DNA from: a virus
IMG/VR virus record: IMGVR_UViG_3300048883_000431
Coordinates: 48,230-112,229 of that record
Direction: 5' to 3' (one strand)
Length of the DNA stretch: 64,000 bases
Numbering within the stretch: the first letter of the stretch is position 1; every line of letters starts with the position of its first letter. Position numbers and translations under genes: made by a program. The notes under the pieces were generated by a model, which saw nothing but the letters and a program-made list of their open reading frames with translations, searched no databases and was not told where the DNA came from. Shown in pieces: positions 28,800-52,992 of the stretch.

Positions 28800-28996
28800 A
28801 GGTCCTCCAGGACATCGGCCACCACGTCGAGGGCGGCGTCGATGATGTTGTCGAAGAGCTTCTGCTCCTGCTCCTCGTCGAGACCGGGGACGTCAATCCT
28901 CTCGTTGAGCGCCTTCGCGAGCTTATCATCAATATCGGACAGGACAAGCTCGATGATCCTGGACTTGAGTATCACGCGTGCGAACCACCTAAGCAT
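28796..28996 (-). CDS. small acidic hypothetical protein
   Basis: Coupled ORF with GGAG RBS. Confidence 0.6.
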   Translation of the reverse strand: MLRWFARVILKSRIIELVLSDIDDKLAKALNERIDVPGLDEEQEQKLFDNIIDAALDVVADVLEDL

Positions 28997-29005
28997 GCAG
29001 GTCTC

Positions 29006-31026: not shown

Positions 31027-31046
31027 AGCGTCCCTTTCGTGTTGGT

Positions 31047-31075
31047 ATTATACCACACGCAATGCCGGATGTCAA
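31047..31075 (-). promoter_or_regulatory. sigma70 consensus promoter
   Basis: TTGACA-N17-TATAAT (perfect consensus) upstream of 31026. Confidence 0.85.
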
Positions 31076-31093
31076 CTTGATTTGGGGGACACG

Positions 31094-31270
31094 TTACCTA
31101 GGGTTGTCCCACTCCGCGACCTTGCCGTCGATGTACTTCTTGACCGTGGTGAGCTTCGCGACGACCGCCTTTGACTCAGCCGCTTCCCTGTTCAGGTTCG
31201 TCCGTATCAGCTTGCCTATCTTCTCGCTCGCCACCGTCAGTTCCCTCGACGCGATGTGCAGGATGTCCAT
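31094..31270 (-). CDS. 58-aa hypothetical protein
   Basis: GGAG RBS, MDILHIASREL...; overlaps the tail of the 31176-31643 ORF. Confidence 0.45.
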   Translation of the reverse strand: MDILHIASRELTVASEKIGKLIRTNLNREAAESKAVVAKLTTVKKYIDGKVAEWDNPR

Positions 31271-31643
31271 TACGTGCTCCGTCTCGTAGGTTTGCTAGGT
31301 TGACAAGCGTCTGCATGGTTGCAGCGACGGGGACCATTGTCTCCCCGAACCGCTCAAGCACCTCGGCCTGTGTGAGCCCGACGCACTGCTTGGCGACGAG
31401 GTCATTCATCGAACGTAGGAGGAGCCACGAGGACCAGGCAAGGTCGCAGACCAACGCCTCCTCCTCGGGTGACTCCATCGTTCCCAGTATAGTGAACGCG
31501 GGATCGAACTTGTCTGGTAGCTTGCGCCGCATGAACTGAACGTAATCGTTAATGGACCTCGGGGCTCCGCTGTCTCCGAGATTCTCCAGAAGGTCCTTGG
31601 CCCAAGAGGGGAGCTCGCGTGGGACCGCGTTGGCTGTTACCAT
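31176..31643 (-). CDS. hypothetical protein
   Basis: Coupled to the methyltransferase gene. Confidence 0.5.
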   Translation of the reverse strand: MVTANAVPRELPSWAKDLLENLGDSGAPRSINDYVQFMRRKLPDKFDPAFTILGTMESPEEEALVCDLAWSSWLLLRSMNDLVAKQCVGLTQAEVLERFGETMVPVAATMQTLVNLANLRDGARNGHPAHRVEGTDGGEREDRQADTDEPEQGSG

Positions 31644-33145: not shown

Positions 33146-33292
33146 GCTCCCGACCTACGAACTAAAGGTACCCCCTGCCTTCGTCGAGCACCTGAAGTCC
33201 GTGCGCCCGGAGGGAGGAACGGGAAGCCGTCGGAGCCCGCAGCAGCTCGTGGATTGGCAGGGCAGACTCCACCAAGAAGTCCGTGCCCTGAA

Positions 33293-34339
33293 TCAAGGAA
33301 CAGGTGGTCCATAGACTGCATAGCGTCCAACTCCCTCACGTGTCACATCCCCGCGCGCTACCGCATTGTCCAGGCACTCGTGTATCGGTGACAACCATCG
33401 GAACTTCTTCGCCAACTCCGCGTGGGGAATCGGACGTTGCTTTGATGCAGCGAACGCCCGGAGGCTGTCCCCCCAGGGTGTCCTAGCCAGTGGGCGGCCA
33501 GTTGATCTTGCGAGCGACTGCATTCGCTCGACTGCGCTCCACCGAACCTGCTTTGCCCGTGACTTCGATATACCAAGCCGCTCCCCTATCTCCAAGTCGC
33601 TGTGGACGAGGTGCGGCGGCAGTCCGAAGTGCATGGTGATGACTTCTAAGTCGCGCGGCACAAGAGTACGCAAGTAGGGCAGTGTATCCTCTACCGGTCT
33701 CGTACTGGCTTCCGAAGTACGTACCCGCTCGATGTAGTCGTCGAAGCTCGCGGAAGCATCCGCAAGTGTCGTGCGGTCCTGTCGATGCGCGTAGTCCGTG
33801 CCCTTTAACACCCATAGCTCGTCCATCCCAATGCCTGTGCGCTCCGAGATCTCCTCGGCGAACGGCGCACGCCCCATCTCGGTCTGCATGTCCCGGTCGG
33901 CCTTGGCGATCTCCTGGACGGCGTGGTACACCTCCTTGTTCACGCGTTCGCCGCCGAGCAACTGCCACCGAGCTCGTCGCACGTAGTTGCGCACCACCTC
34001 TGTGGCGTAGGTGATGAACTTCACACCCCGGTCGGGGTCGAACCACTCGACCGCCGCCATCAGTCCGATCATTCCCTCGGACACCAGGTCCTCGGTGTAG
34101 TCGCGTGCGTTCCCGTGCTGCACCGCCACGCTCAACACCATCCCGAGGTGACGACGCACAAGGCGAGCCATCGCCGTGCGCACGCCGCCCTGTGCCATGC
34201 GTATGACCGTCAGCTCCTCCGCGCGCTCCATCGGAACCGGCGGGTTGTGCTTGCGGTCCATGATCAGGTGCCACGGGAGCTTGGTAAACCCACGCCCCAG
34301 CGCACCATACTCGCCCCTGACCAGTAGCTTCTCGGTCAT
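33293..34339 (-). CDS. sigma70-family (RpoD/RpoS-like) sigma factor
   Basis: DLVSEGMIGLMAAVEWFDPDRGVKFITYA; region 3 GRAP..EEIS; region 4 EIGERLGISKSRAKQ. Confidence 0.9.
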   Translation of the reverse strand: MTEKLLVRGEYGALGRGFTKLPWHLIMDRKHNPPVPMERAEELTVIRMAQGGVRTAMARLVRRHLGMVLSVAVQHGNARDYTEDLVSEGMIGLMAAVEWFDPDRGVKFITYATEVVRNYVRRARWQLLGGERVNKEVYHAVQEIAKADRDMQTEMGRAPFAEEISERTGIGMDELWVLKGTDYAHRQDRTTLADASASFDDYIERVRTSEASTRPVEDTLPYLRTLVPRDLEVITMHFGLPPHLVHSDLEIGERLGISKSRAKQVRWSAVERMQSLARSTGRPLARTPWGDSLRAFAASKQRPIPHAELAKKFRWLSPIHECLDNAVARGDVTREGVGRYAVYGPPVP

Positions 34340-34402
34340 GCGCGCTCACTTACGGTTACCGTCCCAGTCCCTGTCGAAGATCGTCGGTATCTTACGCATG
34401 GC

Positions 34403-34732
34403 TTACCTGTCGCCCCCACTCCCAGAAAGGACACCGCGCACCGCGCGGCTTGCCAGCTTGGCTATGTTCCGCCGTGCCACCTCGGCGAGGGACACCTTGA
34501 GCTCGTGCGCCAGCGCGACGATATACCACAGCGCGTCCCCGAGCTCGTCGATCAACTCTTGGCGGCGCTCTTCGGTGAGGACCCCGTGCTCGTCCCGCCC
34601 GATTTTCTTGACTTGGTTCGCGATCTCGCCCGCTTCCCCGGCGAGTCCGAGCGCGGCGTACTCGATGTTCGACCCCCGTCTCGGGTAGATCGCGGTTGCG
34701 TCGGCCTGCTCTTGGTACTTGATGATGTCCAT
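34403..34732 (-). CDS. MazG-like nucleotide pyrophosphohydrolase
   Basis: LGLAGEAGEIA..VKK, ELGDALWY, NIAKL.SR. Confidence 0.9.
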   Translation of the reverse strand: MDIIKYQEQADATAIYPRRGSNIEYAALGLAGEAGEIANQVKKIGRDEHGVLTEERRQELIDELGDALWYIVALAHELKVSLAEVARRNIAKLASRAVRGVLSGSGGDR

Positions 34733-35127
34733 TTGCGCTCCACGATTTTGACTTCGACCCGAGGGTCATCCTTGTCGACATCAAACTGGTCCGACCAGCC
34801 GCCGATGTAGGCCCACGTGTCGTTCGGTATGATCCCCCCCACCTGGAGGGCGTCGAAGATGATCTTCTTGGCGGCTGCCACGTTGTCCTTGTCCCGCCGC
34901 CGGTCTGGGCATACCCACGTGATGACGAAGAACAGCGGGAACGTAGTGCACGCGTGCAGTCCCTGCCGTGCGATCTCCAGAACGATGATGGTTTCCCACT
35001 CGTTCTTCATCGCGTTCCACCTGTTGTACCTCGACTTGCCGCGCCGACCCATAGTGCCACGGGCCTGCAGAATCTCGTTCATTCCAGGCATTTTACCGGG
35101 GATAACAAGCGTCTGGATTCGAGCCAT
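34552..35127 (-). CDS. RusA-like Holliday junction resolvase
   Basis: RRDKDN...K...DAL...G.I.ND motif, PRVEV; the ORF runs on into the MazG gene. Confidence 0.75.
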   Translation of the reverse strand: MARIQTLVIPGKMPGMNEILQARGTMGRRGKSRYNRWNAMKNEWETIIVLEIARQGLHACTTFPLFFVITWVCPDRRRDKDNVAAAKKIIFDALQVGGIIPNDTWAYIGGWSDQFDVDKDDPRVEVKIVERKWTSSSTKSRPTQPRSTRDGGRTSSTPRSDSPGKRARSRTKSRKSGGTSTGSSPKSAAKS

Positions 35128-35777
35128 TCTCGGCTCCTCGACTGGTCTATGCGTTCGGCGTAGAACTTCTTATCCTTAGAGTATACAGCGACCCGCGCGG
35201 TATAGAAAGGACAGGAGGACACCAACGCACGAAGGTAGACGTAGGTCGAGCGTCTGAGTTCGAGCGGATCGTCGGGTCCTGTGGTGTCACACATGTCCCA
35301 CAGGAACCGATTGAATGTTGCAGGCATGACCCCGAAGTCAGGTGCGATCTCCCGCCCAGTGATGCACGCCTGGGCGAAGGTCACGTCGAACCCCTCGATG
35401 GGGGACCCGTAGTAGCACAGCCAGTAGTACCCACGTATGGACTTGATCGCTATGAGTTCCGGGTAGCGACCCCGAAGCTCCGCGCCCCTGAACTTACGAC
35501 GATCCGTCAGCGTCATCAGCTCGGGGATGCGCGATCTGTATACGTTGACCACGGACTCGGCGTGGATCATGCCGTTGGGGCAGTCCGGGTCGTCGTCCTT
35601 ACGTAGCAGGACAACGACGGGGTTGGCCAGGTCGGTCAGCGCGGACGCCACGATACGTATGCGCGGGTCGCGGTCGAGGTATGCGGCGACGGTGCGTAGC
35701 TGTTCGCGCGTGATGGAGATGCGGCCGTCGTGGATGATCCTGTCGACGACAAGCCCCGCCTTTACCCGTCCGCTCAT
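35079..35777 (-). CDS. hypothetical protein
   Basis: ATG overlaps the clamp gene stop. Confidence 0.55.
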   Translation of the reverse strand: MSGRVKAGLVVDRIIHDGRISITREQLRTVAAYLDRDPRIRIVASALTDLANPVVVLLRKDDDPDCPNGMIHAESVVNVYRSRIPELMTLTDRRKFRGAELRGRYPELIAIKSIRGYYWLCYYGSPIEGFDVTFAQACITGREIAPDFGVMPATFNRFLWDMCDTTGPDDPLELRRSTYVYLRALVSSCPFYTARVAVYSKDKKFYAERIDQSRSREWLESRRLLSPVKCLE

Positions 35778-36928
35778 GCGTTCACCCCCGCTTTGGACAC
35801 CACCTGCGGAACCATGAAGCACTGGTTGGAGTAGGCCACGTCCGTCCCGTCGTCGTGGCGCTCGATCATAAACGCTTGCTTCTCCGAGGACAGGGTGATC
35901 TCCACCACGTCGCCGTTGGCGTGCGCCAGCGCGTCGCGCACCGCGTTCGTCCTCACCTTCTTGGTGATCGGTGGGCACGACGAGCGGGTCGGGATCAGGT
36001 CGGACGTCGCCCCGGTGAGCGCGGTCTCGTCCGTCCGCACCTCGATCTCGTTGCCCCCGAAGATGAGGTCGGCGATGGGGGCGTCGCTGTCTCCGAATAT
36101 CTCCGAGCGGTCGAGAGCTTGCGCCAGCTCGGGGCGGTCAACGACGACGGTATCGCACCCCTCCATGTCCATGAGGTGCGCCTGGATGGCATCGTAGTAC
36201 CACTCGCCCTCCAGGCAGCGACACGACAGCCACACGTGGCCGTTGTCGAGGACGAGCATCTTGCCCGACCGTCCGAGGATAAGGGGCGCGTCAGTCGTGA
36301 TGGTGCTGGAGATGATCGCGGACGTGGTGTTCGGCACGAGGAACCACGACATCGGTGTGTCGGCAGACTCGTCGAGGGTTGTGGTCGCTACCGCGCACCG
36401 CCGTCGGTCGGTCGCCATGATGGACAGCTCTTGGTCTTCCACACGGTAGTAGACCGCGCCGAGCTCGGGGGACTGTCCGCTGCTATCCGATGCGTAGGAC
36501 GTGTCCGAAACCATGCGTCGGAAGATGTTGCCGTCAGGCAGGACGCCCATCGGCTCGTAATCCTTGCGGTCGTTCGGGTAGTTCTCCGCCGTCGAGGTGA
36601 GCATCGAATACTTGCCCTGTCCCGCCGTGATGTGGAGGGTGGGCTTGCCCTTGTCCTTTCGGAAGGCCACCGACGCATCGCGCAGCCCGCTGATAAGGCG
36701 TGTGAACTTCCGTGCGTCCACTAGGAACTCTTCGGGATCAGTGTCGTGCGTGCCGACCACCACCTCAACGTAGGCCTGGAGGTTGCTTCCTCGGATGCGC
36801 ACCGTCTTGTCCGCGTCGATGGACACGCACAGGTTCTTGAGTAGTTCGATCCCACCCGCCGCACGGGCGAGAAGCTCCGCCGTCTTAGCGCCGGACTGCA
36901 GCGCGTCACGGTCGAGTGTCAATTCCAT
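35774..36928 (-). CDS. dnaN: DNA polymerase III beta sliding clamp
   Basis: 384 aa; GSNL, AENYP, MATDRRR, VDRPELAQALDR, final MVP(Q); three-domain length. Confidence 0.85.
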   Translation of the reverse strand: MELTLDRDALQSGAKTAELLARAAGGIELLKNLCVSIDADKTVRIRGSNLQAYVEVVVGTHDTDPEEFLVDARKFTRLISGLRDASVAFRKDKGKPTLHITAGQGKYSMLTSTAENYPNDRKDYEPMGVLPDGNIFRRMVSDTSYASDSSGQSPELGAVYYRVEDQELSIMATDRRRCAVATTTLDESADTPMSWFLVPNTTSAIISSTITTDAPLILGRSGKMLVLDNGHVWLSCRCLEGEWYYDAIQAHLMDMEGCDTVVVDRPELAQALDRSEIFGDSDAPIADLIFGGNEIEVRTDETALTGATSDLIPTRSSCPPITKKVRTNAVRDALAHANGDVVEITLSSEKQAFMIERHDDGTDVAYSNQCFMVPQVVSKAGVNA

Positions 36929-36980
36929 GTTACCGGAGTCCCCTTCCGATTTTTTACCAGATGCACAGGTTAAAATGTTT

Positions 36981-37015
36981 AAAACGTGTGGAAGGCAGGC
37001 ACGCCCCCCACACGC
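36981..37015 (-). terminator. intrinsic terminator
   Basis: GCGUGUGGGGGGC/GCCUUCCACACGU hairpin followed by U residues; G-U pairs work only on the minus strand. Confidence 0.55.
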
Positions 37016-37074
37016 ATCAGATTACCGAAAGTGGAAGCGAAACCTATCGCCTCCTGGGGAAATTATCCCCTTCC

Positions 37075-37743
37075 TCAGACACGGGTAGGAAGACCGAGTC
37101 CGAAGTCCTTGACCCGCGCCCATCCTTCCTCGCCGAGGACATCGACGAGTTTCGCGCGGCGCGCGGCCTGTGAGTTGTAGACGGTGTTGAGGCGCTCGCG
37201 GGCGGTGGCGTCCTGCATGTCAACACCGCGAAGCTGCGCATACTTGAGGAAGATGCCGTCCGCCTCATCATAGGTGTGGATTGCGCTCGACAGGACGCTG
37301 ACGAGCTTCGGCAGCTCGGGGGCGAGGTCCGCTTCGAGGTCCTTCGCCGTCCCTGGGAAGCTCGCGCTGAACGTCTGGTCCGGGTCCTTGAGGTCGGCAC
37401 CCGCTCGGAAGATGCGGAGCGTGTACTTGCGCACGGCCTCGCCGTCTTCGTCCTTGGTCGCGCTGCCCGGCTGTAGCTGACACCGGATGTCTCCTCCGGG
37501 AATCTTGAGCGACTGCTTCTTGCCCGCCGCCGCCGGAACCTCCTTGGGCGTGTGCTTCTGGACGTACTCGCCCGTGACGGTGCTAATCCGTGTGAGCGCG
37601 TCCTTGACGTCCTGCGTAAGTTTCGCCTCGCCGTCCTGGATCACAAAGTCCGAGAGGATCGCGACGTCCGCGCCATAGTCGAGTTCGCCCGAGTCCACGC
37701 CCTGATTCACGAGCTTCCGTACCGCCGTTTTGCTGAGTGCCAT
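37075..37743 (-). CDS. hypothetical protein
   Basis: AAGGGGA RBS, typical codon bias. Confidence 0.65.
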   Translation of the reverse strand: MALSKTAVRKLVNQGVDSGELDYGADVAILSDFVIQDGEAKLTQDVKDALTRISTVTGEYVQKHTPKEVPAAAGKKQSLKIPGGDIRCQLQPGSATKDEDGEAVRKYTLRIFRAGADLKDPDQTFSASFPGTAKDLEADLAPELPKLVSVLSSAIHTYDEADGIFLKYAQLRGVDMQDATARERLNTVYNSQAARRAKLVDVLGEEGWARVKDFGLGLPTRV

Positions 37744-37754
37744 TCCGAGTCCCC

Positions 37755-37946
37755 TTAGTTGGATTCGAGCTCGTCTCGCACGTCATGTGCGAAATCGTAA
37801 AGCTCCGCGAGAACGGCGTCGAGGACTGCCCCCTCGCCGTGTTCTGCCGCCACCCCGATTCGTGCCGCGACCTTCTCCTTGAAGCTATTGCGGAACGACG
37901 GGTGAAGCTGGCTCACGTAGTCTTGTGCGGTCACGTATGCGGGCAT
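37755..37946 (-). CDS. small hypothetical protein
   Basis: First gene after a promoter; GGAAGGA RBS. Confidence 0.6.
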   Translation of the reverse strand: MPAYVTAQDYVSQLHPSFRNSFKEKVAARIGVAAEHGEGAVLDAVLAELYDFAHDVRDELESN

Positions 37947-37966
37947 ACGGTCGTCCTTCCGATAAT

Positions 37967-37995
37967 ATGATACCCCAAGCCACCGTCGGGGTCAA
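37967..37995 (-). promoter_or_regulatory. sigma70 promoter
   Basis: AAC-TTGACC-N17-TATCAT-AT. Confidence 0.75.
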
Positions 37996-38013
37996 GTTCA
38001 TTTCCGAGTTTGG

Positions 38014-38832
38014 TCAGCCGGTGCGCCACAGGAACGAAAGGCCGAGCGTCGGGCCAGGCTGGTCAATGGACGCCCACATCCGCATGAGTTTGTCCGAGTC
38101 GCGCGACGTGGAGAATCCGCCCTCCTTGACCCCGAAGTCTGCAAGCTCCTTCGTGGAAAGCAGTAGGTGCCGCGCCTGGACCATGATCTTGAACCCACGC
38201 CGGACCTCGGCCACAGGGATGACGACGTTCTTGGCGTTGTATTGGAGCTCCAGGGCGTACGTGGATGCTACCCCCCTGATGATGATTGAGGCCGACGCGC
38301 GGCGTGTGACACCGAGCTCCCGCAGGGCTGGGGCGAACAGCGCGTAGTCCATCGTGACATCCTGCTGCGCCCCGACTATGTCCTCCTTCGTGATGCTGCG
38401 GTAGAGGTCGTAGGGCTTTGCCTTCGACACGGTAGCAGGAACATCCATCTCGAACCCGCCCGTCGACAGGACGTATCCGGGCTTCTCGGGGTTCGTGCGG
38501 AATTCTACCCCAACGCCCTTGGTGTTTTCGAGAATCGGTGATACCATCGCAACCACGTGATGGTCAAGGATGAGCGGCCCGTGCTCGTCGAAGTACTTGG
38601 TCTCGGAGGTAGCCTGGTGAACCAACGCGATATTCATACGCTGGAGATCGGTCGACCAGACCGACGCGTAGAGGTCGGGTTCGTGCGTGGGCTGCAGGTA
38701 GAGCTGCTTCGCCATGATCCCCCTGTGTTCGTTGGTCCCTCCCGTTGCGGGGCAGACCGCGTAGCGCATCGCACGCCCGAGCAATTCGGGGGATTGGGAA
38801 CTGAGGATCAAGTCACCTTGCGAACTAGCCAT
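38014..38832 (-). CDS. two-domain beta-clamp-like protein
   Basis: WSTDLQRM (cf. ATDGHRL), PYDLYRSI (cf. FPDYRRVI), IMVQARHLL; start chosen downstream of the promoter. Confidence 0.45.
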   Translation of the reverse strand: MASSQGDLILSSQSPELLGRAMRYAVCPATGGTNEHRGIMAKQLYLQPTHEPDLYASVWSTDLQRMNIALVHQATSETKYFDEHGPLILDHHVVAMVSPILENTKGVGVEFRTNPEKPGYVLSTGGFEMDVPATVSKAKPYDLYRSITKEDIVGAQQDVTMDYALFAPALRELGVTRRASASIIIRGVASTYALELQYNAKNVVIPVAEVRRGFKIMVQARHLLLSTKELADFGVKEGGFSTSRDSDKLMRMWASIDQPGPTLGLSFLWRTG

Positions 38833-38871
38833 CGGACGCCTTCCCATTGGGTGGTACGCGGGTATGGGGAT

Positions 38872-38900
38872 ATGATACCCAAGGGCGTGGGGCGTGTCAA
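38872..38900 (-). promoter_or_regulatory. sigma70 promoter
   Basis: AAC-TTGACA-N17-TATCAT-AT. Confidence 0.8.
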
Positions 38901-38916
38901 GTTGGATTCCGGGCAT

Positions 38917-38945
38917 AAAAAGAGCCGCCCGGAGGACCGGACGGC
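38917..38945 (-). terminator. intrinsic terminator directly upstream of the promoter
   Basis: GCCGUCCGG-UCCU-CCGGGCGGC then UCUUUUU. Confidence 0.65.
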
Positions 38946-39070
38946 GAGCGGGAATGTTGGAGGCGTGATCCACAGCCGCAAAAGGGCTGCTGTAACATGA
39001 GTAGTATAGACCCCTTCTCGACGACACAGAGTTTTCGAGCCCTTAATTCCGCAAGGAACGATCTCTGATA

Positions 39071-40063
39071 GTGCGACTCTTCGGAATCCTTAGCGAGCGC
39101 GCGAACGCTACCGGGCAAGCCCAGGAGCATCTGTTCTGGAGTTTGTGGCGGTCGTCCGATCTCGGCGAAATAGCTACGTTCGAGGAGCTCTACCCGCTGT
39201 ACACGACCGTGTTCAAGCAGCCGACCGGGGAGCCGCAGTCCAAGCGTGCGCTTCGCAGGTTGCTTGCCGGGAACGCCCTTCATTGGCGCGTGGTACAATC
39301 GCGTCGGCGTGGGGCGTGTTTCGCCCTTATCGGCGCGGCGGACGTTGCCTACGGGCTTTGTGTCCCGCTTAAATTGACCGGCGCGCGGTATGTCCGCGAC
39401 GGTATCGACATCGACGTGCCTGACGCTGCCGGGTCCCTGGCGCATCGAAACTCCATCGCGGTGCTGCCGTCGCTGGTGCGGGGAACAGACGATCCTCGAA
39501 GCCAACAGCTTATCGGGACGCAGAACGGGATGTCCCGTCGGTCCCTGGCGACGCACGCCAAGAAGCTCGCGGAGCTTGGGCATCTCGTCGTCACGCGCAA
39601 CGAGATCGTGGTTGCCGTCCACGACGACCACCTAGAGGCTACGAAAATACGAGAGGGGCTTGTATCCTGTCATCCGGGCAGGGTATTCTTCTTACGCAGC
39701 CACGGCGAGCAATACGCCGTGTGCACCGCATCGTGCAACGAATACGAGATCGGCAACTCCGTCTCGATTGCACGAACAAGGTCAGTTAAGCGAGTCCGGG
39801 CTAGGTTGCGGTCAACCGAGCGAATGCTTGGCCAAACGCGCTGTGAAATCCAGGGGGAACACGCGCCTAGTCGGACTCGCCGAGCTGCCTTCCTACGAAA
39901 CGACAAGTCTAAAGCACGCCGCACCCGCAGGCGTCGTCACGAACCACAGAAGCCACATCCGTCAGCCGTCATCATCGACGAAGGCTCCAGACGGTTCACG
40001 CATGTCGTGGGCTGTGTGCGGGAACACGCGGCTTGGTACGACGGGATGGTTGCCAATGGGTAG
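39071..40063 (+). CDS. basic winged-HTH protein, possible replication initiator or regulator
   Basis: SQQLIGTQNGMSRRSLATHAKKLAELGHL HTH; AAGGA RBS; the only clear plus-strand gene in the right arm. Confidence 0.55.
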   Translation: MRLFGILSERANATGQAQEHLFWSLWRSSDLGEIATFEELYPLYTTVFKQPTGEPQSKRALRRLLAGNALHWRVVQSRRRGACFALIGAADVAYGLCVPLKLTGARYVRDGIDIDVPDAAGSLAHRNSIAVLPSLVRGTDDPRSQQLIGTQNGMSRRSLATHAKKLAELGHLVVTRNEIVVAVHDDHLEATKIREGLVSCHPGRVFFLRSHGEQYAVCTASCNEYEIGNSVSIARTRSVKRVRARLRSTERMLGQTRCEIQGEHAPSRTRRAAFLRNDKSKARRTRRRRHEPQKPHPSAVIIDEGSRRFTHVVGCVREHAAWYDGMVANG

Positions 40064-40105
40064 TGCTAAGAATTGCACACTCAAGGTACAACCCCTCCGG
40101 GGATT

Positions 40106-40312
40106 TCATTGCCAGGCTAGGTTGAACAGCATGATCCCGAGTCCTATCACGATTACGACTGCTGCTAGAAACGCGCGGTACTGCCATTGCGACTCGAAGT
40201 GGATGCGACCGACCCAAGCACCCCATAGCGTGAACCCCCCGGTACAGAATAAGGCGGCACCCAGGACTCCAGGCACCGCCTGCTTCAGCACGGCCACGAG
40301 AGCATCCATCAT
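40106..40312 (-). CDS. small two-TM membrane protein
   Basis: Two hydrophobic stretches. Confidence 0.45.
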   Translation of the reverse strand: MMDALVAVLKQAVPGVLGAALFCTGGFTLWGAWVGRIHFESQWQYRAFLAAVVIVIGLGIMLFNLAWQ

Positions 40313-40344
40313 CGCCGCCCCCCACATCGAACTCGACGTTTGCC

Positions 40345-40752
40345 CTACACGCTTTGTGTACGCCAAGCTCCGCGAGCTTCTCCTGCGTCCCGTTCCTGGG
40401 CACGCCGTGTGCGAACCCCGTCCGCGACATAGTCGCCGAAGGGAACGTCCTCGCACTCCCCACGGCCCGACACTGTGACGGTCTTCTTGGCGCAGTCCAA
40501 GACGATAAGCGGGTCTTCCTCCCCCGTTGGACTCGCCATGATTCCGAAGCCTGTCGTTCCGCCACGGTCGTCCTGGCCGTCGATCATGTCCTCGAAGACG
40601 ATCCTCCCGAGGTAGGCCCCGTCATCCCATCGTGCGCGGCCCCGATCCAGCGCGCCCTTGACGACCTCCGCTAGTTCGGTGCCGCCCCAGTGTGTGTAGA
40701 GATACACGGTCTCGCCAAAGTTCTTAACGCCAACGCTCGCGCGATCACCCAT
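40345..40752 (-). CDS. phage hypothetical protein
   Basis: MGDRA...VYLYTHWGG...RWDD.AYL.RI pattern recalled from phage proteins. Confidence 0.6.
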   Translation of the reverse strand: MGDRASVGVKNFGETVYLYTHWGGTELAEVVKGALDRGRARWDDGAYLGRIVFEDMIDGQDDRGGTTGFGIMASPTGEEDPLIVLDCAKKTVTVSGRGECEDVPFGDYVADGVRTRRAQERDAGEARGAWRTQSV

Positions 40753-42127
40753 TTGCCGCGTTTCCAATGTGAGGTGTAGCTCGATCATGCGCGCTCTTTT
40801 CAATGTAGAAGACGCCCTCGTCCTCGTCCTCTTGGATGTCGTATCGGTTGCCCTGGAACCCGTTCCCCCGCAAGAACTTCACGAGAGCCTTCCCGCCTAC
40901 GGTGTTCGACGTACTCATGCACCTCACGTCGTCGCCCAGGTCGTCGTCCGCCTCCGAGAAGGCGAACCTCCCTCTATCGGCGTCGTGGAGAAACCGAATA
41001 AACCGCCATCCCCCTCCCATTTTGGTCACGAACGCTACGTTGAACCGGACGACGCACACGCTGTGCTTGGCGTACTCACTGATGGTCATTCGGGGCTTAC
41101 CCCTGCCGCCTCCGCCCCTCCGGTCGAGGCTTCCAATCTTCTGATATGGCATTCCGTATCTCCCTAGCCGACCGTAAGAAGTGCACTCTATCGACGGGCT
41201 CCGTGGTGTCTGTGTAGGGTAGGTGAGCCCATCCCCGGAAGCTGTCCATGTTCGCCAGTCCCTCCGCACCGAACTCCCGCGCGGCCTCCGCCCCGGCGAG
41301 CCACACCTGGTAAAGCTGCTTGGCGATACCCTCGTCCGTCATCGTCCCGGCGCGGGACTTGAACATCTCGATGTCCTGCCGAATGCAGGTCGCGTCGAGT
41401 CGCTTGGCCATCGCGAGGAGCTGCGCGAGGGTAGTGCCAGGCCCCAGGTACCACGCCTTGTATTGCGGAGAGAACCTAGCGCCCGCGAACGTGCGTTTGA
41501 TTCCGTTCACGAGGAGCTCGAACTTACCGTGATCCGTGCTGAACCAAACCGCAATCCAGCCCTTGTGCTCGTGCTGGACGTAATTCACCTCGTATGGGTC
41601 TGTGGATGGCTGACTCATACCCTATCCGCGTCCGACCACCTATCTGTTGCGACGAGCGTCATATCCCACCGAAGGTGGTAGAGGACCTTCCCGTCGGAGT
41701 CGTTCCCGAACATGGTGATGCAGGCGGTGCCCGGTGTCTCCCGGTTAATCGTAATAGCAACTGTCTCGTGATCTGCCATGTTCGCTGCGCCTTTGACGTT
41801 GTTAGGCATCGCCTCGTAGGCCTCCAAGGCCACCATCGAGGTGTCCACCGCGAGGTTCGATAGCCGCTTCCCGAACCCGCTGTCCGAGTTCGGGTGGGAT
41901 ACCTCTTCGGGTATTGTGTCGGGGTCAATCTTAGCCATCTAGTCAGCCCCTTCTGGACCCTCCTCGCCGTCGGCCCCCACGATCTCGTCCACGGCCTTCT
42001 CGATGGCCGTGGCTAACTGGATGGCCTCCGGGATGTTGGCCGCTCCGCCCGCGTTGTTCATCTGCACTAGCTGCACGAAGATTGTCGTTGCTGACGCCAC
42101 CAGGTCACTCTTGCGCTGGCTCCCCAC
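40745..42127 (-). other. four coupled small hypothetical ORFs (40745-41152, 41097-41618, 41615-41938, 41939-42127)
   Basis: Overlapping start/stop codons; 41097-41618 has a HARP-like GARFSPQYKAW segment. Confidence 0.5.
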
Positions 42128-42392
42128 TGTCCTGCTCCTTACTTGAGTTCATCGCTTTGGTGACTCCGTTGTGGAGTCTAACCGCCATCGACACCGCTCT
42201 GTCAGACACACGCTGGTCGAACGCCCTGCCGGTCTCGCCCCGCGTCGGCCGTCCGACTCCGTTCGCATCCAGAATACCTGCTTCGATCCTTTCGGACCAC
42301 TCGACCAGGGTGGCTGCCGACGTCACGAGCGTCGGTCCCGTCAAGTCGAGGCTGCTCCATTCACCAGTTCCGGCCCCCATGCCTTCGCCCTT

Positions 42393-42443
42393 CCGTATTG
42401 CCCGTATTGCCGCCCGTATGCCGCCGTATTGCCGCCGTGTGCC
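42393..42443. repeat. short tandem CCGTAT(T)GC repeats
   Basis: Units at 42393, 42402, 42414, 42424 and a variant at 42434. Confidence 0.65.
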
Positions 42444-42520
42444 GTCCCAATTCCCGTTCCGGGGTACACCCGACGGCGGCCCCCGTCGTCGGCGTCCTCC
42501 GCGCGCCCCAACTCATGCGT

Positions 42521-43459
42521 TCACGTGACAAGAGCTTCCCCCTTCTCCGTAAGAACCCGCCCGCGTGGGCTGATGGCCATGAACCCCTCCTGGAGAAGGA
42601 ACGACTCATGAACGTCGCGCAGCGTCTCGGTGTCCAAGGCTACGTATGCCTTAATAGTCGAAAAAGCAGCCCGACCGTTGTTTCCATAGATACATTGTAG
42701 AATCCTACGGTCGATACTGTCAAGCCCAGTTGAGTCGATACCGAGGTCTTCCAGGCACGAAAGTGCAGTTGCCTCGTCCAGATGCCCGTCGTTGAGTACA
42801 ACTGCGAAGTCGTACATCCTACGCGTGAGTCTCTTGGCTATACGCGGTGTCCCGCGCGAGCAACGCCCCACCAGCAGCGGCACTTCCTCGTCGCACGTCC
42901 CGCCCAGCAGGCCCACGTCCCTCGCGGCGATGGTCGCTAGGTCCTCGGGCGAGTAAAACTGCAGCGTGAGGTTGATCCCGAACCTGTCGCGCATGGGGGC
43001 CGCGACCTGCCCCGCGTTCGTCGTCGCGCCTATCACCGTCACCTTGGGGAGCGTGATCCTCATGGGACGGAACCCTGGAATGGACATCGACACCACGCTG
43101 TCCTCCATCACAGGGTAGAGCTGTTCCTGCACTGCGTGGTGGACGCTGTGGATTTCGTCGATGAACACCACATCGCCCCTTCCTACGCCGTCGAGGAATC
43201 CCGCAAGGTCTGAATTCCCGAGCGCCTTACCGATTGTCTCGCGCACTGTTCCGCCGGTCTCGTTGGCTATAACGTATGCGAGCGTCGTCTTGCCCAGTCC
43301 CTTCGGACCCGACAGTAGGACGTGGTCGAGTACCTGTCCGCGCGCGTCGGCGCTAGCCATGTACACAGCTAGGTGCTTCTTGATCGTTGTCTGCCCGACG
43401 ACATCCGCCAGCATCTGTGGCCGGAATGCTGTTGTGTCGACGGGCTGCACGACTGCCAT
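42521..43459 (-). CDS. ruvB: Holliday junction branch-migration ATPase RuvB
   Basis: FRP..L...VGQ, GPKGLGKTT, FIDEIH, GATT, RDRFG, RGTPRIA, SPRGR. Confidence 0.95.
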   Translation of the reverse strand: MAVVQPVDTTAFRPQMLADVVGQTTIKKHLAVYMASADARGQVLDHVLLSGPKGLGKTTLAYVIANETGGTVRETIGKALGNSDLAGFLDGVGRGDVVFIDEIHSVHHAVQEQLYPVMEDSVVSMSIPGFRPMRITLPKVTVIGATTNAGQVAAPMRDRFGINLTLQFYSPEDLATIAARDVGLLGGTCDEEVPLLVGRCSRGTPRIAKRLTRRMYDFAVVLNDGHLDEATALSCLEDLGIDSTGLDSIDRRILQCIYGNNGRAAFSTIKAYVALDTETLRDVHESFLLQEGFMAISPRGRVLTEKGEALVT

Positions 43460-47723: not shown

Positions 47724-48815
47724 TTAGAATGGGGTGTAGTTGGGGTCTACGTTGCACTTGAGCGCCATCACCATGTCACTCAGGTTGCCCGTTGTGTGCT
47801 CACACTGACGCTCTATGGCCACGGCCTCCTCGTGGCCCTTCACCCCCATAGCCCGATGCAGCACGGTTGCAAGGGCTGTCATGGCCACCTTGTGCTCTGG
47901 CCGCGCCCGCTCGCCGTCCATGATCGTGGGCTGGTTGGGGTCGGGCTCCTTGACCTCGCACATCACTGGCGGCATCTCTACCCCGGTGACCCCCGTGCAG
48001 ACATCGGCCCACGCCGCGATGAATGTCTCCTTCAGGCAGGGGCTTTCCCAGATATACCCGAGGTCCTCGTGGAGGGAGTCCTCGAAGTAAGCGGACGCGT
48101 TCTCCTCGTGCCAGTGGCGCATGTGCGGGTCTGGCTTGACTAGGGGATGCCGCGCCACCCAGTACTCGGCCCACTGGACGCCCTTGTCGTGGGCCAGGTC
48201 GCCATCCATACTCTCGCACGCCTTGGGGACTCCCCACTCCTCGTGGTTCTGATCCAGACAGTCGGAGCACACGTCGCCCTCGCTGCACCCGCTGTAGGCG
48301 ATGGGCGTGTCGGTCTCTTCCAGGTAGATCAGGTCGTTATCGTCCTCGAAGAACTCCTCGCACGCCATACACGAGTGACCGCACGCGCACTCGTCGCACC
48401 ATATCTGTCCGTACTGGTTGCGGTGGTAGATGCTATCGTCATCGACACCGGCCTCGCAGACCACGCATATCTCGTTGGATTCTATGTCGAGCCGATGGGA
48501 GATGAAGTCACGAGTGCGCTGCGAGTAGTTCTTGAAGTGGTCCACGACGTAGCCCTCGTCGTCGTCGAGGTCCCAGGTCCGGGTGTTGGTCGAGCCCCCA
48601 TGTCGGCAATGTGCGCCGACCACGCACTCCGTAAGGAGCCACGCCACCTGGTAGCTGTTCACTTCCCTGTCCAGCTTGGTCTCGAAGCAGTAGATCTCCT
48701 CGTTGTCGTTGACGGCGAACAGAAGCTCATCCCCGTGGTCCCGGCGGTAGAGTATCAGCGCCGAGTCTGACATTGCCATGCTATTGTCCCAGCCCTTGTC
48801 CAGTTTCGCTACCAT
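47724..48815 (-). CDS. Cys-rich (multiple CxxC) acidic hypothetical protein
   Basis: CVVC, CDEC, CMAC, CSDC motifs. Confidence 0.6.
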   Translation of the reverse strand: MVAKLDKGWDNSMAMSDSALILYRRDHGDELLFAVNDNEEIYCFETKLDREVNSYQVAWLLTECVVGAHCRHGGSTNTRTWDLDDDEGYVVDHFKNYSQRTRDFISHRLDIESNEICVVCEAGVDDDSIYHRNQYGQIWCDECACGHSCMACEEFFEDDNDLIYLEETDTPIAYSGCSEGDVCSDCLDQNHEEWGVPKACESMDGDLAHDKGVQWAEYWVARHPLVKPDPHMRHWHEENASAYFEDSLHEDLGYIWESPCLKETFIAAWADVCTGVTGVEMPPVMCEVKEPDPNQPTIMDGERARPEHKVAMTALATVLHRAMGVKGHEEAVAIERQCEHTTGNLSDMVMALKCNVDPNYTPF

Positions 48816-48864
48816 GTCCGCAAGTGAGACGCCCGAGCATTCGCTTTCCTCTCGCTCCGATGTG

Positions 48865-48940
48865 TGGTGGAGGCGGGGGGAGTTGAACCCCCGTCCGCAG
48901 CGTGCTCGGATGCGTTGCTACGTCGAAACACGTCGCCCCC
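48865..48940 (-). ncRNA. mini-tmRNA: alanine tRNA-like domain only, no tag reading frame
   Basis: GGGGGCG/CGCCUCC acceptor stem with G3-U70, A73-CCA; stemless D-loop ending UUUCGA; 6-bp helix 2; GAC linker; GGGGG-UUCAACU-CCCCC T-arm; 76 nt, intergenic. Confidence 0.85.
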
Positions 48941-48954
48941 ACTATCGACGATAC

Positions 48955-49497
48955 CTACGCCGTCTGCCCACGTCGGCTTTCAGGTATCCTATCGAAATCG
49001 AAGTCCTCCGGGATGTCGGGCATCTGGTCGGGGTCTATCTGCTTCCCGAACAGCTCCGACATGCTCCGGGCCACGGGGTTCACGGGCCGTTCCTCCGTGG
49101 TCCCTGGCCCCACGTCCTCGCGGAGCGCGTCCCTGAAGGGAACGCCAAGATCGAACATGCTGATGTGCAACAGGGCGTCCATTTCACTACTCGGTGCCAC
49201 CCCGAGGTGGACGTCGTCGCAGTTGTCGCAGATCAACGCGGCGCGGATATGGTAGGTCACCATCGCACGCCCTGCGGCGTCGGGGAAGATGAGCGTGGCC
49301 TGCTCGTCCAGGGAGTCGAGCGACATCTCGTCCGCCTTGGCCAGATGTCCGTGGTAGTTCCCAACGGTCAGCTTGATCGGGACGCTCCCGATAAACCCGG
49401 CGAATCTGCACACCACGCTCACCTTGGTGTCTCCGTCCTTCACGGTCTCCATGAATGTGAGCAGGTCCCGGAACGTATACGTGCCCCTAGTAGTCAT
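48955..49497 (-). CDS. hypothetical protein (CxxC)
   Basis: Coupled to the VWA gene; ends 14 nt before the mini-tmRNA. Confidence 0.6.
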   Translation of the reverse strand: MTTRGTYTFRDLLTFMETVKDGDTKVSVVCRFAGFIGSVPIKLTVGNYHGHLAKADEMSLDSLDEQATLIFPDAAGRAMVTYHIRAALICDNCDDVHLGVAPSSEMDALLHISMFDLGVPFRDALREDVGPGTTEERPVNPVARSMSELFGKQIDPDQMPDIPEDFDFDRIPESRRGQTA

Positions 49498-50893
49498 CGT
49501 TGCCCCCTATCTCAATCCCGACTCCGCCGCTTTGTCGTGCGATGTTGACGAGCTCTTGGTTCGTCCCGAGGACGAAGGCGTGCATCGTAGTCCCCTTCAG
49601 ATCGTTCAACGTCAGACTCACTCCGTCCTGTCCGTCGGTCACCACGAGGAGCTCCGGCTTGGTGAGCTGGTCACCCGACCCCAGTATCTCCTCGACACGC
49701 GCCGTTGCCTGGCGTGCACAGTGGTCGATGGCTGTGCCGCCCCCACCGTAGTAGACGTCCTTCACGTCTGCCATGCACTTCACGGCGGACGCCTCGTCCC
49801 ACGCGTGGTATTCATCCTTCCAGCATGAGGCATCGAAGAACCTGACGTACACCACCGCGTCGCCGCGCTTGACGGCGCGTAGGCGGTTCATAACGATGCC
49901 GCCAGCCTGGTACGTCTTACGCCCCGACATGCTGCCCGACCCGTCCACAAGGATGTAGAGAAGCTGCCGCTTCACGACTGTCTTCACCTTCTCCCGTATC
50001 ATGGCCACGCGGCTTGCGATACGATAGGCCCGCAGCACCGGCGGGTACGTCCACTCACGCGGCGTGAGCTTGTTCACCTCGTCCCACGACTCGATGGGGC
50101 GCACGCGCACCTCCCGGCCGTCGGGGTCCGCCACCTGCTCGCGGCTCAGACTCGTCACCATGCTGGGAAGGCTGTCGATCTTCTTCGACATCCTCAGCCA
50201 CACCCAGTCCTCGGCGGTGAAGTTCGAGGCGATCTCCGCCTTGCTGCCCTTCGCTTCGCTTCCCACCTCCTTGCCGACGCCCGGTTCCAGGTCTTGGAGT
50301 TCCTCCATCGAGGTCTCGTTCACAAGGATGACGCGCTCGTTGATCTCGTCTGCCATGCCCTTCATGTTGATGGAGCTGAACAGCGGGTTCGCGGTCTCGT
50401 CTGCGCCGTGTGTGTCCGAATGTTCCGGCAGGTCCTTCTCCGACATAAGCCGGACGTAGTTCATAGCGCGTTCGAGCGGCGACTTGCCCTCGCACTCGGA
50501 GAAGTCGGCGGCGTTTACGAACTCCTGCGCGTTCGTGTGGTATTGGTTGAGGTGATCCTTCCAGGCGGTTTTGGACTCCGCTTCCGCCCTCCTCGACGCC
50601 GAGCCGGAGTCGGAGTCATAGTAGGCGTTATGGTACAGGCTCCGCCCGCCCGGCAGCGAGCGGTAGCGGCTGTCCTCTTCGCCGTGGACGACGCTGGAGA
50701 TCTCCACTGCCCGTTCCTCGCACGCTTCCTCTAGCGGGCCGGGACTCACGTAGGTCCCTCCCGCGTTGACGTTCACCAGGTCCTCGACAAGATCGGAGGA
50801 CCACGCCTTGAGCCCAAGCTCCGTAGCCTTCTGGCGCATCTCGAACATGTCAGGCCCCCTGTACCCGTGCGGGGGCCGTGTCCTAATCGTCAC
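49487..50893 (-). CDS. VWA-domain protein (ViaA/CoxE-like)
   Basis: MIDAS motif ILVDGSGSM, GGGT, VVTDG. Confidence 0.85.
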   Translation of the reverse strand: MTIRTRPPHGYRGPDMFEMRQKATELGLKAWSSDLVEDLVNVNAGGTYVSPGPLEEACEERAVEISSVVHGEEDSRYRSLPGGRSLYHNAYYDSDSGSASRRAEAESKTAWKDHLNQYHTNAQEFVNAADFSECEGKSPLERAMNYVRLMSEKDLPEHSDTHGADETANPLFSSINMKGMADEINERVILVNETSMEELQDLEPGVGKEVGSEAKGSKAEIASNFTAEDWVWLRMSKKIDSLPSMVTSLSREQVADPDGREVRVRPIESWDEVNKLTPREWTYPPVLRAYRIASRVAMIREKVKTVVKRQLLYILVDGSGSMSGRKTYQAGGIVMNRLRAVKRGDAVVYVRFFDASCWKDEYHAWDEASAVKCMADVKDVYYGGGGTAIDHCARQATARVEEILGSGDQLTKPELLVVTDGQDGVSLTLNDLKGTTMHAFVLGTNQELVNIARQSGGVGIEIGGNDDY

Positions 50894-50903
50894 GCGGGTG
50901 CTC

Positions 50904-52379
50904 CTATGCGAGTGACGTGGCCTTGGAGATGGCGCTCGTCTTGACGTTCGCCGCTGTCTCCTTGAGGGACTTCAACGAGTCCCACATTTGGTCGCTTGCC
51001 TGCACACTTTCGAGGGACACGATGACCCGTTCGAGCTCACGTGCCCATTGCAGGCACTCGACGGCCTTGTCGGTCTGTGTGACCTCACCGACGATGACCT
51101 TGAGCTCCTCCTCGATCTTGTCCAGCACAGCCTGGCACTTCGCGGACTCGCGCGCCTTCTCGGCTTCCGCCAGTATCGTGTCGCCCAGCGACTCCAGCCC
51201 GGCGACGAACCGTAACGCTGCCAGGTTATCGTTCGACTTGCCCTCGGCGTCCTCGATGGCCTTGAGGATTTCGTAGGCGTAGACCGCCGTTCGCGGGCTG
51301 ATGAACTGCCCGCCGTCTACCGCACGGGACACCAGGGATACCAGCATGTTCGCTGTCTCCCCCCGGAACCCAAGTACGTTGTAGAGCAAACGGTAGTCCT
51401 CCAGCGTGTAGCTGGCCCACTTCACTTCGAGTTGAAGCGGGAAGCGTTCAACGAGTGCGTGCGCCGACGCGCCCAGGTCGCTGATTTCCGACGGTGTGCG
51501 GTTAGTGATGGCGATGATGCACTTCGTAGCCATCGTGAATCGCTGCGCGCCGTTACGAAGCTCCCGCGCGGTCAGCGTGTCCTTGAGGGACAACAGGACC
51601 GACGGCGGCGCGTCGAACAGCTCCTCGAACACCGCGTACTTGGACGCCAAGAACGAGCGCTCCGGGTTGTATTCAAGCACCTTCTCGCTGTCCAGGCGCG
51701 CGAAGTCGAGGCCGCCGAACATCTTGGCCTCGTCCATCCCCTCGCCGAAGAACTGCACGAAGCACTCTTCCGGCGCGAACTTGTCCATCACTGCCTGGAC
51801 CATCACGCTCTTGCCGTGTCCGGCCGGGCCATACAGTAGGAGGTTGCGGCCGCTCGTCATCGCTGACGATACCGCGTCCGCTACGTCCTCACTGTGGATG
51901 AACCCCGCGCTCAGTTCCGATCTCACCGATGCCCGCATGGGGGCAGCTCCTGTCTTCTTGGTTGATGTAGGCGTTTTCTTCAGCACCACCTCTTTGGTGG
52001 GGCGTACCTGGTGTGCGTCGTCGCCCGCTCCGCTACGGAGTGCGAGTTCATCGACCGCCTCGATGTTAGTGCCAACGACTAGGTGAATGACGAGCTCCGA
52101 ACCGTCTGACACGTCCTTGAAGTCCCACCGTAGTCCGTCCGCCCAGTCGGCCTGCGCCCTGCAAATCATCTCCAAGGGGAGGCCGTCGGGGGTGTAGAGC
52201 GTAGCGCATACCTCACGCATCCCCGACACGTTGAGTTTGAAGGCGTAGCCGCCACCGTCCTCGACGTAGAACCTCCTGCACACCCACTCCGGTGGCGTTC
52301 CACCGTGGTGCAGCCAGTTCTTCGTCTCCGCGAAGTGACCGTCGGCTAGTGCGAGGACATGATGTCCCGAGAATTTCAC
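50904..52379 (-). CDS. MoxR/RavA-like AAA+ ATPase with N-terminal extension
   Basis: GPAGHGKS, AVFEELF, ITN, ALVERF, ISPR; adjacent VWA partner. Confidence 0.85.
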   Translation of the reverse strand: MKFSGHHVLALADGHFAETKNWLHHGGTPPEWVCRRFYVEDGGGYAFKLNVSGMREVCATLYTPDGLPLEMICRAQADWADGLRWDFKDVSDGSELVIHLVVGTNIEAVDELALRSGAGDDAHQVRPTKEVVLKKTPTSTKKTGAAPMRASVRSELSAGFIHSEDVADAVSSAMTSGRNLLLYGPAGHGKSVMVQAVMDKFAPEECFVQFFGEGMDEAKMFGGLDFARLDSEKVLEYNPERSFLASKYAVFEELFDAPPSVLLSLKDTLTARELRNGAQRFTMATKCIIAITNRTPSEISDLGASAHALVERFPLQLEVKWASYTLEDYRLLYNVLGFRGETANMLVSLVSRAVDGGQFISPRTAVYAYEILKAIEDAEGKSNDNLAALRFVAGLESLGDTILAEAEKARESAKCQAVLDKIEEELKVIVGEVTQTDKAVECLQWARELERVIVSLESVQASDQMWDSLKSLKETAANVKTSAISKATSLA

Positions 52380-52992
52380 CGGAGTTGCCTTTCACGTTTA
52401 ATACGTTGGCCGCGTGTGAATATGATACCACATCCCTCGGTGCGTGTCAAGTTTAAATTCGAGGTTCTGCTGCCCACACACCGTATAGGGCGGGGTCGCC
52501 CTCGTGTGCTCCGAAGAAGAAGTTGCCTGGAAGCTCGTCGTTGATCGCGTCCGTGAGCTCCTCGATGGTGTACCCGCCGCTCTCGCGCAGGTCGGTGTAG
52601 TCGACGCGCTCGGTGTTCCCTTCCTCAATCGCCACGAAGACCTCCCAGTTCGTGTCCTCTACGGCATTGGCCCGCTTGGCATTGAGGGCACGCAGTGTGC
52701 CCTCGAACGCCGCGATGAGATCGGACTGCTTCAGCGTGTCCTGACTCACGATCCGTTCCATCTCCCAATTCCTCCTAGAAGGTCGTCCCCTTTGCTCGGG
52801 TGGTAGGGCAACCCATCCCCGCTCAATCAGTATGTCGGTGACGCCTGCATACCAGCCGTCACGCCACTGCTCCTGCGGGGTGCTGTCCTCCCCGGCCACG
52901 TCGGGCATCAGCCCCATCGCCGTGGCCGGAAGCTCCCCGAGGCGGACTGACATCAGCCCGCTACGGAGTGCGAGTTCATCGACCGCCTCGAT
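52030..52992. repeat. 35-bp perfect direct repeat (52030-52064 and 52958-52992)
   Basis: CCGCTACGGAGTGCGAGTTCATCGACCGCCTCGAT occurs twice, coding IEAVDELALRSG in two different genes. Confidence 0.9.
52422..52450 (-). promoter_or_regulatory. sigma70 promoter for the MoxR-VWA-mini-tmRNA unit
   Basis: AAAC-TTGACA-N17-TATCAT-AT. Confidence 0.8.

Follow-up and report, generated by a model that had tools for sequence, protein, structure and literature searches.

What use could a phage have for a tmRNA reduced to its tRNA-like domain (TLD)? The question is raised by a 76-nt element on the minus strand at 48865-48940 of the window, by which we mean the whole 64,000-nt stretch of DNA analysed here (bases 48230-112229 of a linear IMG/VR source record of 112,229 bp, with a CheckV completeness of 92%). 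The phage genome has a G+C content of 61.7% and carries one tRNA-Met. The DNA sequencing runs that contain this stretch come from several metagenome studies of hydrothermal vents, and no RNA run appears among the sequencing runs listed as containing it. DNA contigs that match the region of the element belong either to the same phage, at low depth, or to unrelated contigs that have only its 3' 35 nt in common. From sequence comparison, we confirm that the element is a real gene, for a tmRNA consisting of the TLD, which we refer to as the mini-tmRNA.

When the whole window was compared with Rfam, the tmRNA model RF00023 gave the sole match above threshold, at 48865-48940 (63.8 bits against a gathering score of 47 bits, E 1.4e-22), which is far beyond chance. 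The match covers model positions 1-374, with 15 nt of the mini-tmRNA replacing 312 model positions that comprise the pseudoknots and the tag frame. This end-to-end match and a feature-by-feature parse bear out the initial annotation, which had read the element as the TLD of a tmRNA with neither an mRNA-like domain nor an anticodon loop. It had named Rfam and ARAGORN as checks, and the two diverge: Rfam matched both ends of its model as anticipated, whereas ARAGORN, run on the window and on the whole genome, called neither a tRNA nor a tmRNA at these positions. A tRNA-Ala gene was considered as an alternative identity and rejected, as the element has no D stem and a 15-nt loop rather than a 7-nt anticodon loop, ARAGORN is silent, and the tmRNA model outscores the tRNA model in the Rfam clan comparison. 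The minimum-free-energy fold recovers the acceptor stem, helix 2a and the T-arm. Its z-score of -1.71 relative to shuffled sequences is not significant alone, and the case therefore rests on homology and covariation.

Read from 48940 to 48865, the minus strand is GGGGGCG ACGUGUUUCGA CGUAGC AACGCAUCCGAGCAC GCUGCG GAC GGGGG UUCAACU CCCCC CGCCUCC ACCA, and the segmentation first proposed for it is letter-for-letter correct (Table 1). The AlaRS identity set is complete, comprising a 7-bp acceptor stem with G3-U70, A73 and CCA. The D-loop ends in UUCGA, the last G and A of which form tandem G.A/A.G pairs with a GGA on the 3' side, while the G and A of the linker complete, with the preceding G, the conserved GGAC motif. 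The stemless D-loop with this ending and the GAC linker had been put forward as hallmarks of SmpB binding, and both are found in the Rfam alignment. Helix 2a consists of the pairs C-G, G-C, U.G, A-U, G-C and C-G, and the T stem of 5 bp carries a 7-nt loop that fits UUCNANU. Judged by these features, the mini-tmRNA is equipped for tRNA-like processing, recognition by AlaRS and binding by SmpB. One feature of the D-loop is unusual for the family described below: the window copy has GUG and no GG dinucleotide, which is present in 115/120 relatives among the matches listed. In tmRNA, this dinucleotide is the counterpart of G18-G19 of tRNA, and its absence could make both the D-loop/T-loop elbow and the binding of SmpB weaker in the window copy. 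In the RF00023 alignment, pseudoknots PK1-PK4 are absent, and the 15-nt loop that takes their place forms no stable inner hairpin. Within the 76 nt, we find no arrangement of resume codon, frame and stop; the single stop triplet is a UAG at RNA positions 21-23, in the 5' strand of helix 2a, and no frame precedes it.

Table 1. Features of the mini-tmRNA and of the unit in which it lies, in the order of the minus strand (window coordinates)
Feature	Position	Strand	Details
Sigma-70-type promoter-like site	52422..52450	-	TTGACA, 17-nt spacer, (TG)TATCAT; 11/12 consensus matches
MoxR-like AAA+ ATPase, first gene of unit	50904..52379	-	PF20030 bpMoxR 1.8e-14; PF07728 AAA_5 3e-9
468-aa protein, second gene	49487..50893	-	PF00092 VWA at E 0.002, under cut-off
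180-aa gene, upstream of RNA	48955..49497	-	GC3 0.83; stop codon 14 nt before RNA 5' end
Acceptor stem 5' strand GGGGGCG, RNA 1-7	48934..48940	-	7/7 pairs with 48869-48875; G3 pairs with U70
Stemless D-loop ACGUGUUUCGA, RNA 8-18	48923..48933	-	Rfam alignment, family parse
Helix 2a 5' strand CGUAGC, RNA 19-24	48917..48922	-	Six pairs with 48896-48901, family covariation
15-nt loop AACGCAUCCGAGCAC, RNA 25-39	48902..48916	-	Stands where pseudoknots and tag frame belong
Helix 2a 3' strand GCUGCG, RNA 40-45	48896..48901	-	Rfam alignment, fold, family parse
GAC linker, RNA 46-48	48893..48895	-	Rfam alignment
T-arm GGGGG/UUCAACU/CCCCC, RNA 49-65	48876..48892	-	Rfam alignment, fold, family parse
Acceptor stem 3' strand CGCCUCC incl. 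U70, RNA 66-72	48869..48875	-	Pairing, family parse
Discriminator A73 and encoded CCA	48865..48868	-	Sequence, Rfam alignment
363-aa gene, downstream of RNA	47724..48815	-	GC3 0.84; ATG 49 nt past CCA

The intergenic placement of the mini-tmRNA, as originally described, is upheld by the coding signal around it: GC3 is 0.81-0.84 in both flanking minus-strand ORFs, and the ORFs that overlap on the plus strand are shadow frames. The two genes further upstream, for the ATPase and the 468-aa protein, likewise have a GC3 in the real-gene range of 0.81-0.84. No match to Pfam or PHROG was found for the 180-aa gene. The 363-aa protein is acidic and rich in Cys and His, with several CxxC-like motifs; it too is without a Pfam or PHROG match, and a peptide-pattern search of IMG/VR yielded no relatives. 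The pair formed by the ATPase and the protein with the weak VWA similarity (49487-52379, minus strand) resembles bacterial MoxR-VWA systems and heads the operon with the mini-tmRNA. The promoter-like site lies just upstream of the ATPase gene, and no terminator-like sites occur on the minus strand from there to the mini-tmRNA. We infer that co-transcription of the mini-tmRNA from this site is plausible. The initial annotation had gone further, describing a strong promoter that drives the unit; of this, the near-consensus site itself stands, while the driving of the unit has the standing of that inference.

A short frame is also found on the minus strand between the mini-tmRNA and the body of the 363-aa gene. 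A strong Shine-Dalgarno-like GAGAGGAAAG is followed by an ATG at 48840 that opens a frame of 19 codons with low GC3 (window positions 48784-48855). It overlaps the start of the 363-aa gene at 48815, which has no obvious ribosome-binding site, and may be a leader peptide or a coupling device. The strand block of the mini-tmRNA also encodes, at 26569-43459, RuvB, a homologue of the DNA polymerase III beta-clamp, a sigma-70-like factor, RecT and two N6/N4 DNA methylases, and is the non-structural part of the genome. As for the phage itself, no relatives were found with the two flanking proteins in IMG/VR or with one in JGI metagenomes, and a lineage-specific pattern search of metagenome contigs found no relative of the window phage.

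We then find that the mini-tmRNA belongs to a much wider phage family. Three pattern scans of IMG/VR gave at least 161 loci, with at least 120 unique relatives of 65-95 nt that have a perfect acceptor stem and T stem and a modal length of 81-83 nt. All 13 of the IMG/VR elements checked against RF00023 exceed its gathering score, and they match end to end at lengths of 77-89 nt. ARAGORN, which is the standard finder of tRNA and tmRNA genes, is silent on 134/145 pattern matches. The shared architecture is a TLD with helix 2a, which is closed directly in a class of 65-68 nt and closed by an A-rich bulge and a hairpin of 3-4 bp in a second class of 76-89 nt, of which the window mini-tmRNA is a short member. 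The search patterns constrained helix 2a at its closing C-G pair only. Among the 120 unique relatives in the matches listed, pairs 2-6 of this helix are canonical in 88-99%, compared to ~42% with shuffled partners, and the positions of the helix each show four to six pair types in the family parse of these matches. For an alignment of 25 sequences (the window, Mycobacterium phage DS6A and 23 IMG/VR relatives), RNAalifold gives 16 pairs, 7 of which have compensatory double changes. Covariation among the relatives is seen in helix 2a, the acceptor stem and the T-arm. The same architecture with covariation, for which the initial annotation had suggested searching other phages, is present in them, and the compact form recurs.

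The family also bears on whether the RNA is charged. One scan left the 3' acceptor strand unconstrained and gave 111 unique sequences among the matches listed. Every one of the 111 has a U across from G3 and an A as discriminator, whereas covariation among GC, CG, AU and UA is free at acceptor pairs 5 and 6 in the matches listed. A G3-C70 pair is at least as stable as G3.U70, and its complete absence therefore points to selection for recognition by AlaRS. With G3-U70 and A73 invariant though the search did not require them, alanine charging appears to be under selection in the family. CCA is encoded in 42/111 of these relatives among the matches listed, as it is in the window mini-tmRNA.

The genomic neighbourhoods of the relatives are diverse. 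None of the window's flanking proteins recurs beside mini-tmRNAs in 162 loci, which argues that the mini-tmRNA is a stand-alone module. Some relatives sit within tRNA arrays, while in 25-27 loci among the matches listed, the mini-tmRNA is placed in a late structural operon, between the genes for the large terminase (TerL) and the portal. In such loci, prohead protease and capsid genes come after the portal gene (e.g. L040:461-4730 and L047:6342-10323), whereas the window copy is in a non-structural setting. Large structured RNAs occur near two relatives. In IMG/VR UViG_3300030098_005273, a mini-tmRNA at 2509-2590 (62.3 bits) is separated by 13 nt from a GOLLD RNA on the same strand (2604-3013, 173 bits), and a short viral contig with a mini-tmRNA at 6289-6377 also has a HEARO RNA (RF02033, 794-1003, 170.6 bits).

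In cultured phages, BLAST with three family representatives found no full-length mini-tmRNA. When the region and the 76-nt element were each compared by BLAST with 50,697 phage records, the matches were confined to the 3' half and lay in tRNA-Ala genes, integrase-side attP sites and full tmRNAs. Matches in Pseudomonas phage SM1 (locus positions 519-910, 118.6 bits), Alcaligenes phage vB_Af_QDWS595 (534-881, 111 bits) and Synechococcus phage S-CRM01 (558-779, 82.5 bits) were considered as mini-tmRNAs and rejected, as they proved to be permuted two-piece tmRNA genes (RF04321) that are unannotated in their records. Brevundimonas phage vB_BpoS-Kikimora (ON529857, locus positions 513-644), a cultured jumbo phage, contains inside a tRNA array an unannotated 132-nt tmRNA-like element that matches RF00023 over positions 1-374 with a sub-threshold 32 bits. 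It may be a reduced tmRNA of intermediate size in a tractable phage-host system.

With regard to function, we consider it most likely, with modest confidence, that the mini-tmRNA, charged with alanine, competes for the SmpB, EF-Tu and stalled ribosomes of the host and thereby blocks SsrA tagging. More generally, the family of TLD-only phage RNAs probably interferes with the rescue and tagging of stalled ribosomes in the host. In the sequence of events that we envisage, the mini-tmRNA would be transcribed within the MoxR-VWA operon, excised in the fashion of a tRNA by host RNase P and 3' exonucleases, charged with alanine by host AlaRS via G3-U70 and A73, and bound by host SmpB at the D-loop, the tandem G.A pairs and the T-arm elbow. 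No match to SmpB, RF-1/ArfB, peptidyl-tRNA hydrolase (Pth) or CCA-adding enzyme was found in the 112-kb genome (92% complete), and an RNA from a phage with none of these would have to rely on host factors. Lacking a resume codon, a tag frame and pseudoknots, the mini-tmRNA could not template a degradation tag. It would instead compete with host tmRNA for SmpB, EF-Tu and the empty A site of stalled ribosomes, and the outcome would be less SsrA tagging and less of the coupled proteolysis and mRNA decay during infection, from which we assume that the phage benefits.

Such competition could take two forms. The mini-tmRNA may act off the ribosome as a sponge, a variant supported by the result that tmRNA in E. 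coli is subject to strong inhibition by a molecule similar to the TLD-only RNA of DS6A (Mao et al. 2009, as summarised in PMC4131195 and PMC11915505); the account in PMC4131195 gives titration of SmpB as a possible cause and reports that chargeability is not needed for the inhibition. Alternatively, the mini-tmRNA may act as a charged substrate that takes over the nascent chain, in which case it would need a host release factor. In favour of this variant are the invariance of the alanine identity set and the peptidyl transfer to TLD-only tmRNA seen in vitro (Shimizu and Ueda 2006, as described in PMC3895274). Since the inhibition in E. coli is independent of chargeability, pure titration of SmpB does not explain why G3-U70 is invariant, and the universal alanine identity set suggests that the mini-tmRNA reaches at least the EF-Tu/ribosome stage.

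The decoy for SmpB and EF-Tu is one of two leading models, both of which the initial annotation had proposed; the tie that it suggested to host defences that cleave mRNA or tRNA is speculative. The other model, which we regard as possible but distinctly less probable, is that tag-free rescue is itself what is selected: the alanyl-TLD with SmpB would enter the empty A site and accept the nascent chain, which would be released by host ArfB, ArfA/RF2 or Pth, or after further alanine additions, so that rescue capacity would increase during infection with no SsrA degron. The identity elements that are invariant in 111/111 among the matches listed, the CCA encoded in the window element and in 42 of these relatives, and the transfer described in PMC3895274 are all consistent with such a role, as is the view that jakobid tmRNAs lacking an mRNA-like domain are restricted to liberating ribosomes (PMC3590771; PMC11915505). 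The placement of many relatives in TerL-portal late operons, where the translation load is high, also fits. However, as the RNA has no stop codon, release would need another factor, and the phage is without ArfB/RF-1 and Pth. Moreover, the sole in vivo test reported in the account of PMC4131195, with a similar molecule in E. coli, showed inhibition rather than complementation. We raise only tentatively the broader proposal that these RNAs form a large, ancient class for host takeover, in which alanine charging is needed and untemplated alanine, added once or repeatedly to stalled chains, replaces the SsrA tag. If true, the fate of stalled chains would be reprogrammed, in that they would be spared or given a minimal alanine tail, and the window RNA would be the minimal 76-nt natural example, with neither an inner hairpin nor a D-loop GG.

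The position of the mini-tmRNA between two ORFs of one operon, 14 nt past a stop codon, and the presence of some relatives inside tRNA arrays would also suit other uses of a tRNA-like shape, such as an RNase P 'punctuation' that splits the polycistronic mRNA, a decoy for a host defence nuclease or sensor directed at tRNA, or a donor of alanine outside the ribosome. We think these improbable because a processing signal or AlaRS substrate would not need the features that contact SmpB, and these are kept (the stemless UUCGAC D-loop, GGAC, the tandem G.A and a covarying helix 2a). Less probable still is a non-functional remnant, whether a decayed phage tmRNA gene or an attP-type ssrA fragment. The 3' 32 nt of the mini-tmRNA occur unchanged at the 3' end of tmRNA genes in at least 120 bacterial species, spread over many phyla, which also means that the host cannot be deduced from them, and integrase-side attP sites with such 3' fragments are found in Moorella phage MCACPph1 and Pseudomonas phages MR13 and MR15. 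The bacterial sequences that share this 3' end and have a locatable 5' end are, however, all full-length (343-405 nt), whereas the window element has a 5' acceptor strand that pairs perfectly with the 3' strand, as well as a D-loop. Neither tyrosine (PF00589) nor serine (PF00239) recombinases were found in the 92%-complete genome, and the compact architecture recurs in at least 120 unique sequences with compensatory changes. Together, these observations largely refute the remnant and attP reading.

Nearly all bacteria use trans-translation, which is also a drug target. A compact competitor of this process that phages make naturally would offer a ready tool and hint at the way in which phages deal with the quality control of host translation, and the invariant G3-U70 makes the choice between an SmpB sponge and a charged ribosome substrate directly testable. 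The window copy adds one member, with a new phage lineage, habitat and operon context, and no new principle. It is the family, together with the now testable role of charging, that gives the finding its value, rather than the single copy. The open literature searched names DS6A as the one phage example and a single functional test, of a similar molecule; what is added here is a covarying family of at least 120 sequences with an invariant alanine identity set.

When compared to standard bacterial SsrA (RF00023), the window RNA is homologous throughout the TLD, whereas PK1-PK4, the resume codon, the tag ORF and its stop are missing, with 15 nt replacing ~270-310 nt. The same minimal architecture is shared by the engineered TLD-only fragments used in biochemistry and crystallography, which are chargeable and accept peptide with SmpB and EF-Tu in vitro, as described in PMC3895274. 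Unlike these laboratory constructs, the window RNA is a natural gene under selection.

Of the precedents named in the initial annotation, both the jakobid mitochondria (PMC3590771) and the single mycobacteriophage, DS6A (PMC4131195, PMC11915505), are found in the literature. Jakobid mitochondrial tmRNAs are without an mRNA-like domain, keep the G-U pair and A73 (PMC3590771), and are thought to be limited to freeing stalled ribosomes (PMC3590771; PMC11915505), while CDS-less tmRNA forms of ~65 bp are known from Mallomonadaceae plastids (PMC11915505). Like the window RNA, the jakobid and oomycete mitochondrial forms and the Mallomonadaceae plastid forms have lost the tag frame and kept the G-U pair and discriminator A of alanine identity, and their presumed role is likewise to act on stalled ribosomes with no tagging (PMC3590771, PMC11915505). 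In contrast to the window RNA, the organellar forms occur together with a dedicated SmpB that is imported, and most of them are two-piece RNAs with a circular permutation. They are the product of reductive evolution of a resident rescue system, whereas the phage RNA is an added, competing copy beside the full tmRNA of its host.

The closest known counterpart is that of Mycobacterium phage DS6A, which is listed as carrying a 'TLD only' tmRNA (PMC4131195), such that the kind is already published and the possible novelty left to a literature check does not hold. The 'standard, no CDS' tmRNAs number 9 among 97,179 sequences (PMC11915505). In the open literature searched, DS6A is the sole phage example named, and no paper was found that covers the breadth of the phage family. 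The DS6A element spans 83 nt (JN698994 28478-28560; tmRNA Website tmID 11587) and is unannotated in the GenBank record. At 43.2 bits, it falls under the RF00023 gathering score of 47 and is thus missed by routine annotation, whereas the window RNA, at 63.8 bits, fits the tmRNA consensus better. The two RNAs are alike in being phage-encoded, in one piece, ~80 nt long and intergenic in a non-structural region, and in having G3-U70, A73, a stemless D-loop, a helix 2a with a short cap, a T-arm and no tag frame. They differ in that the window RNA has UUCGAC and GGAC, encodes CCA and has a bare loop of 15 nt, while DS6A has GUCGAC and GCAC, ends in ACUA and has an inner hairpin of 4 bp. The phages are also unrelated in type and habitat, one being from a hydrothermal vent and the other a phage of M. 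tuberculosis. By its sequence, the window RNA is nevertheless a member of the DS6A-type TLD-only phage tmRNAs, a kind that is known but barely described.
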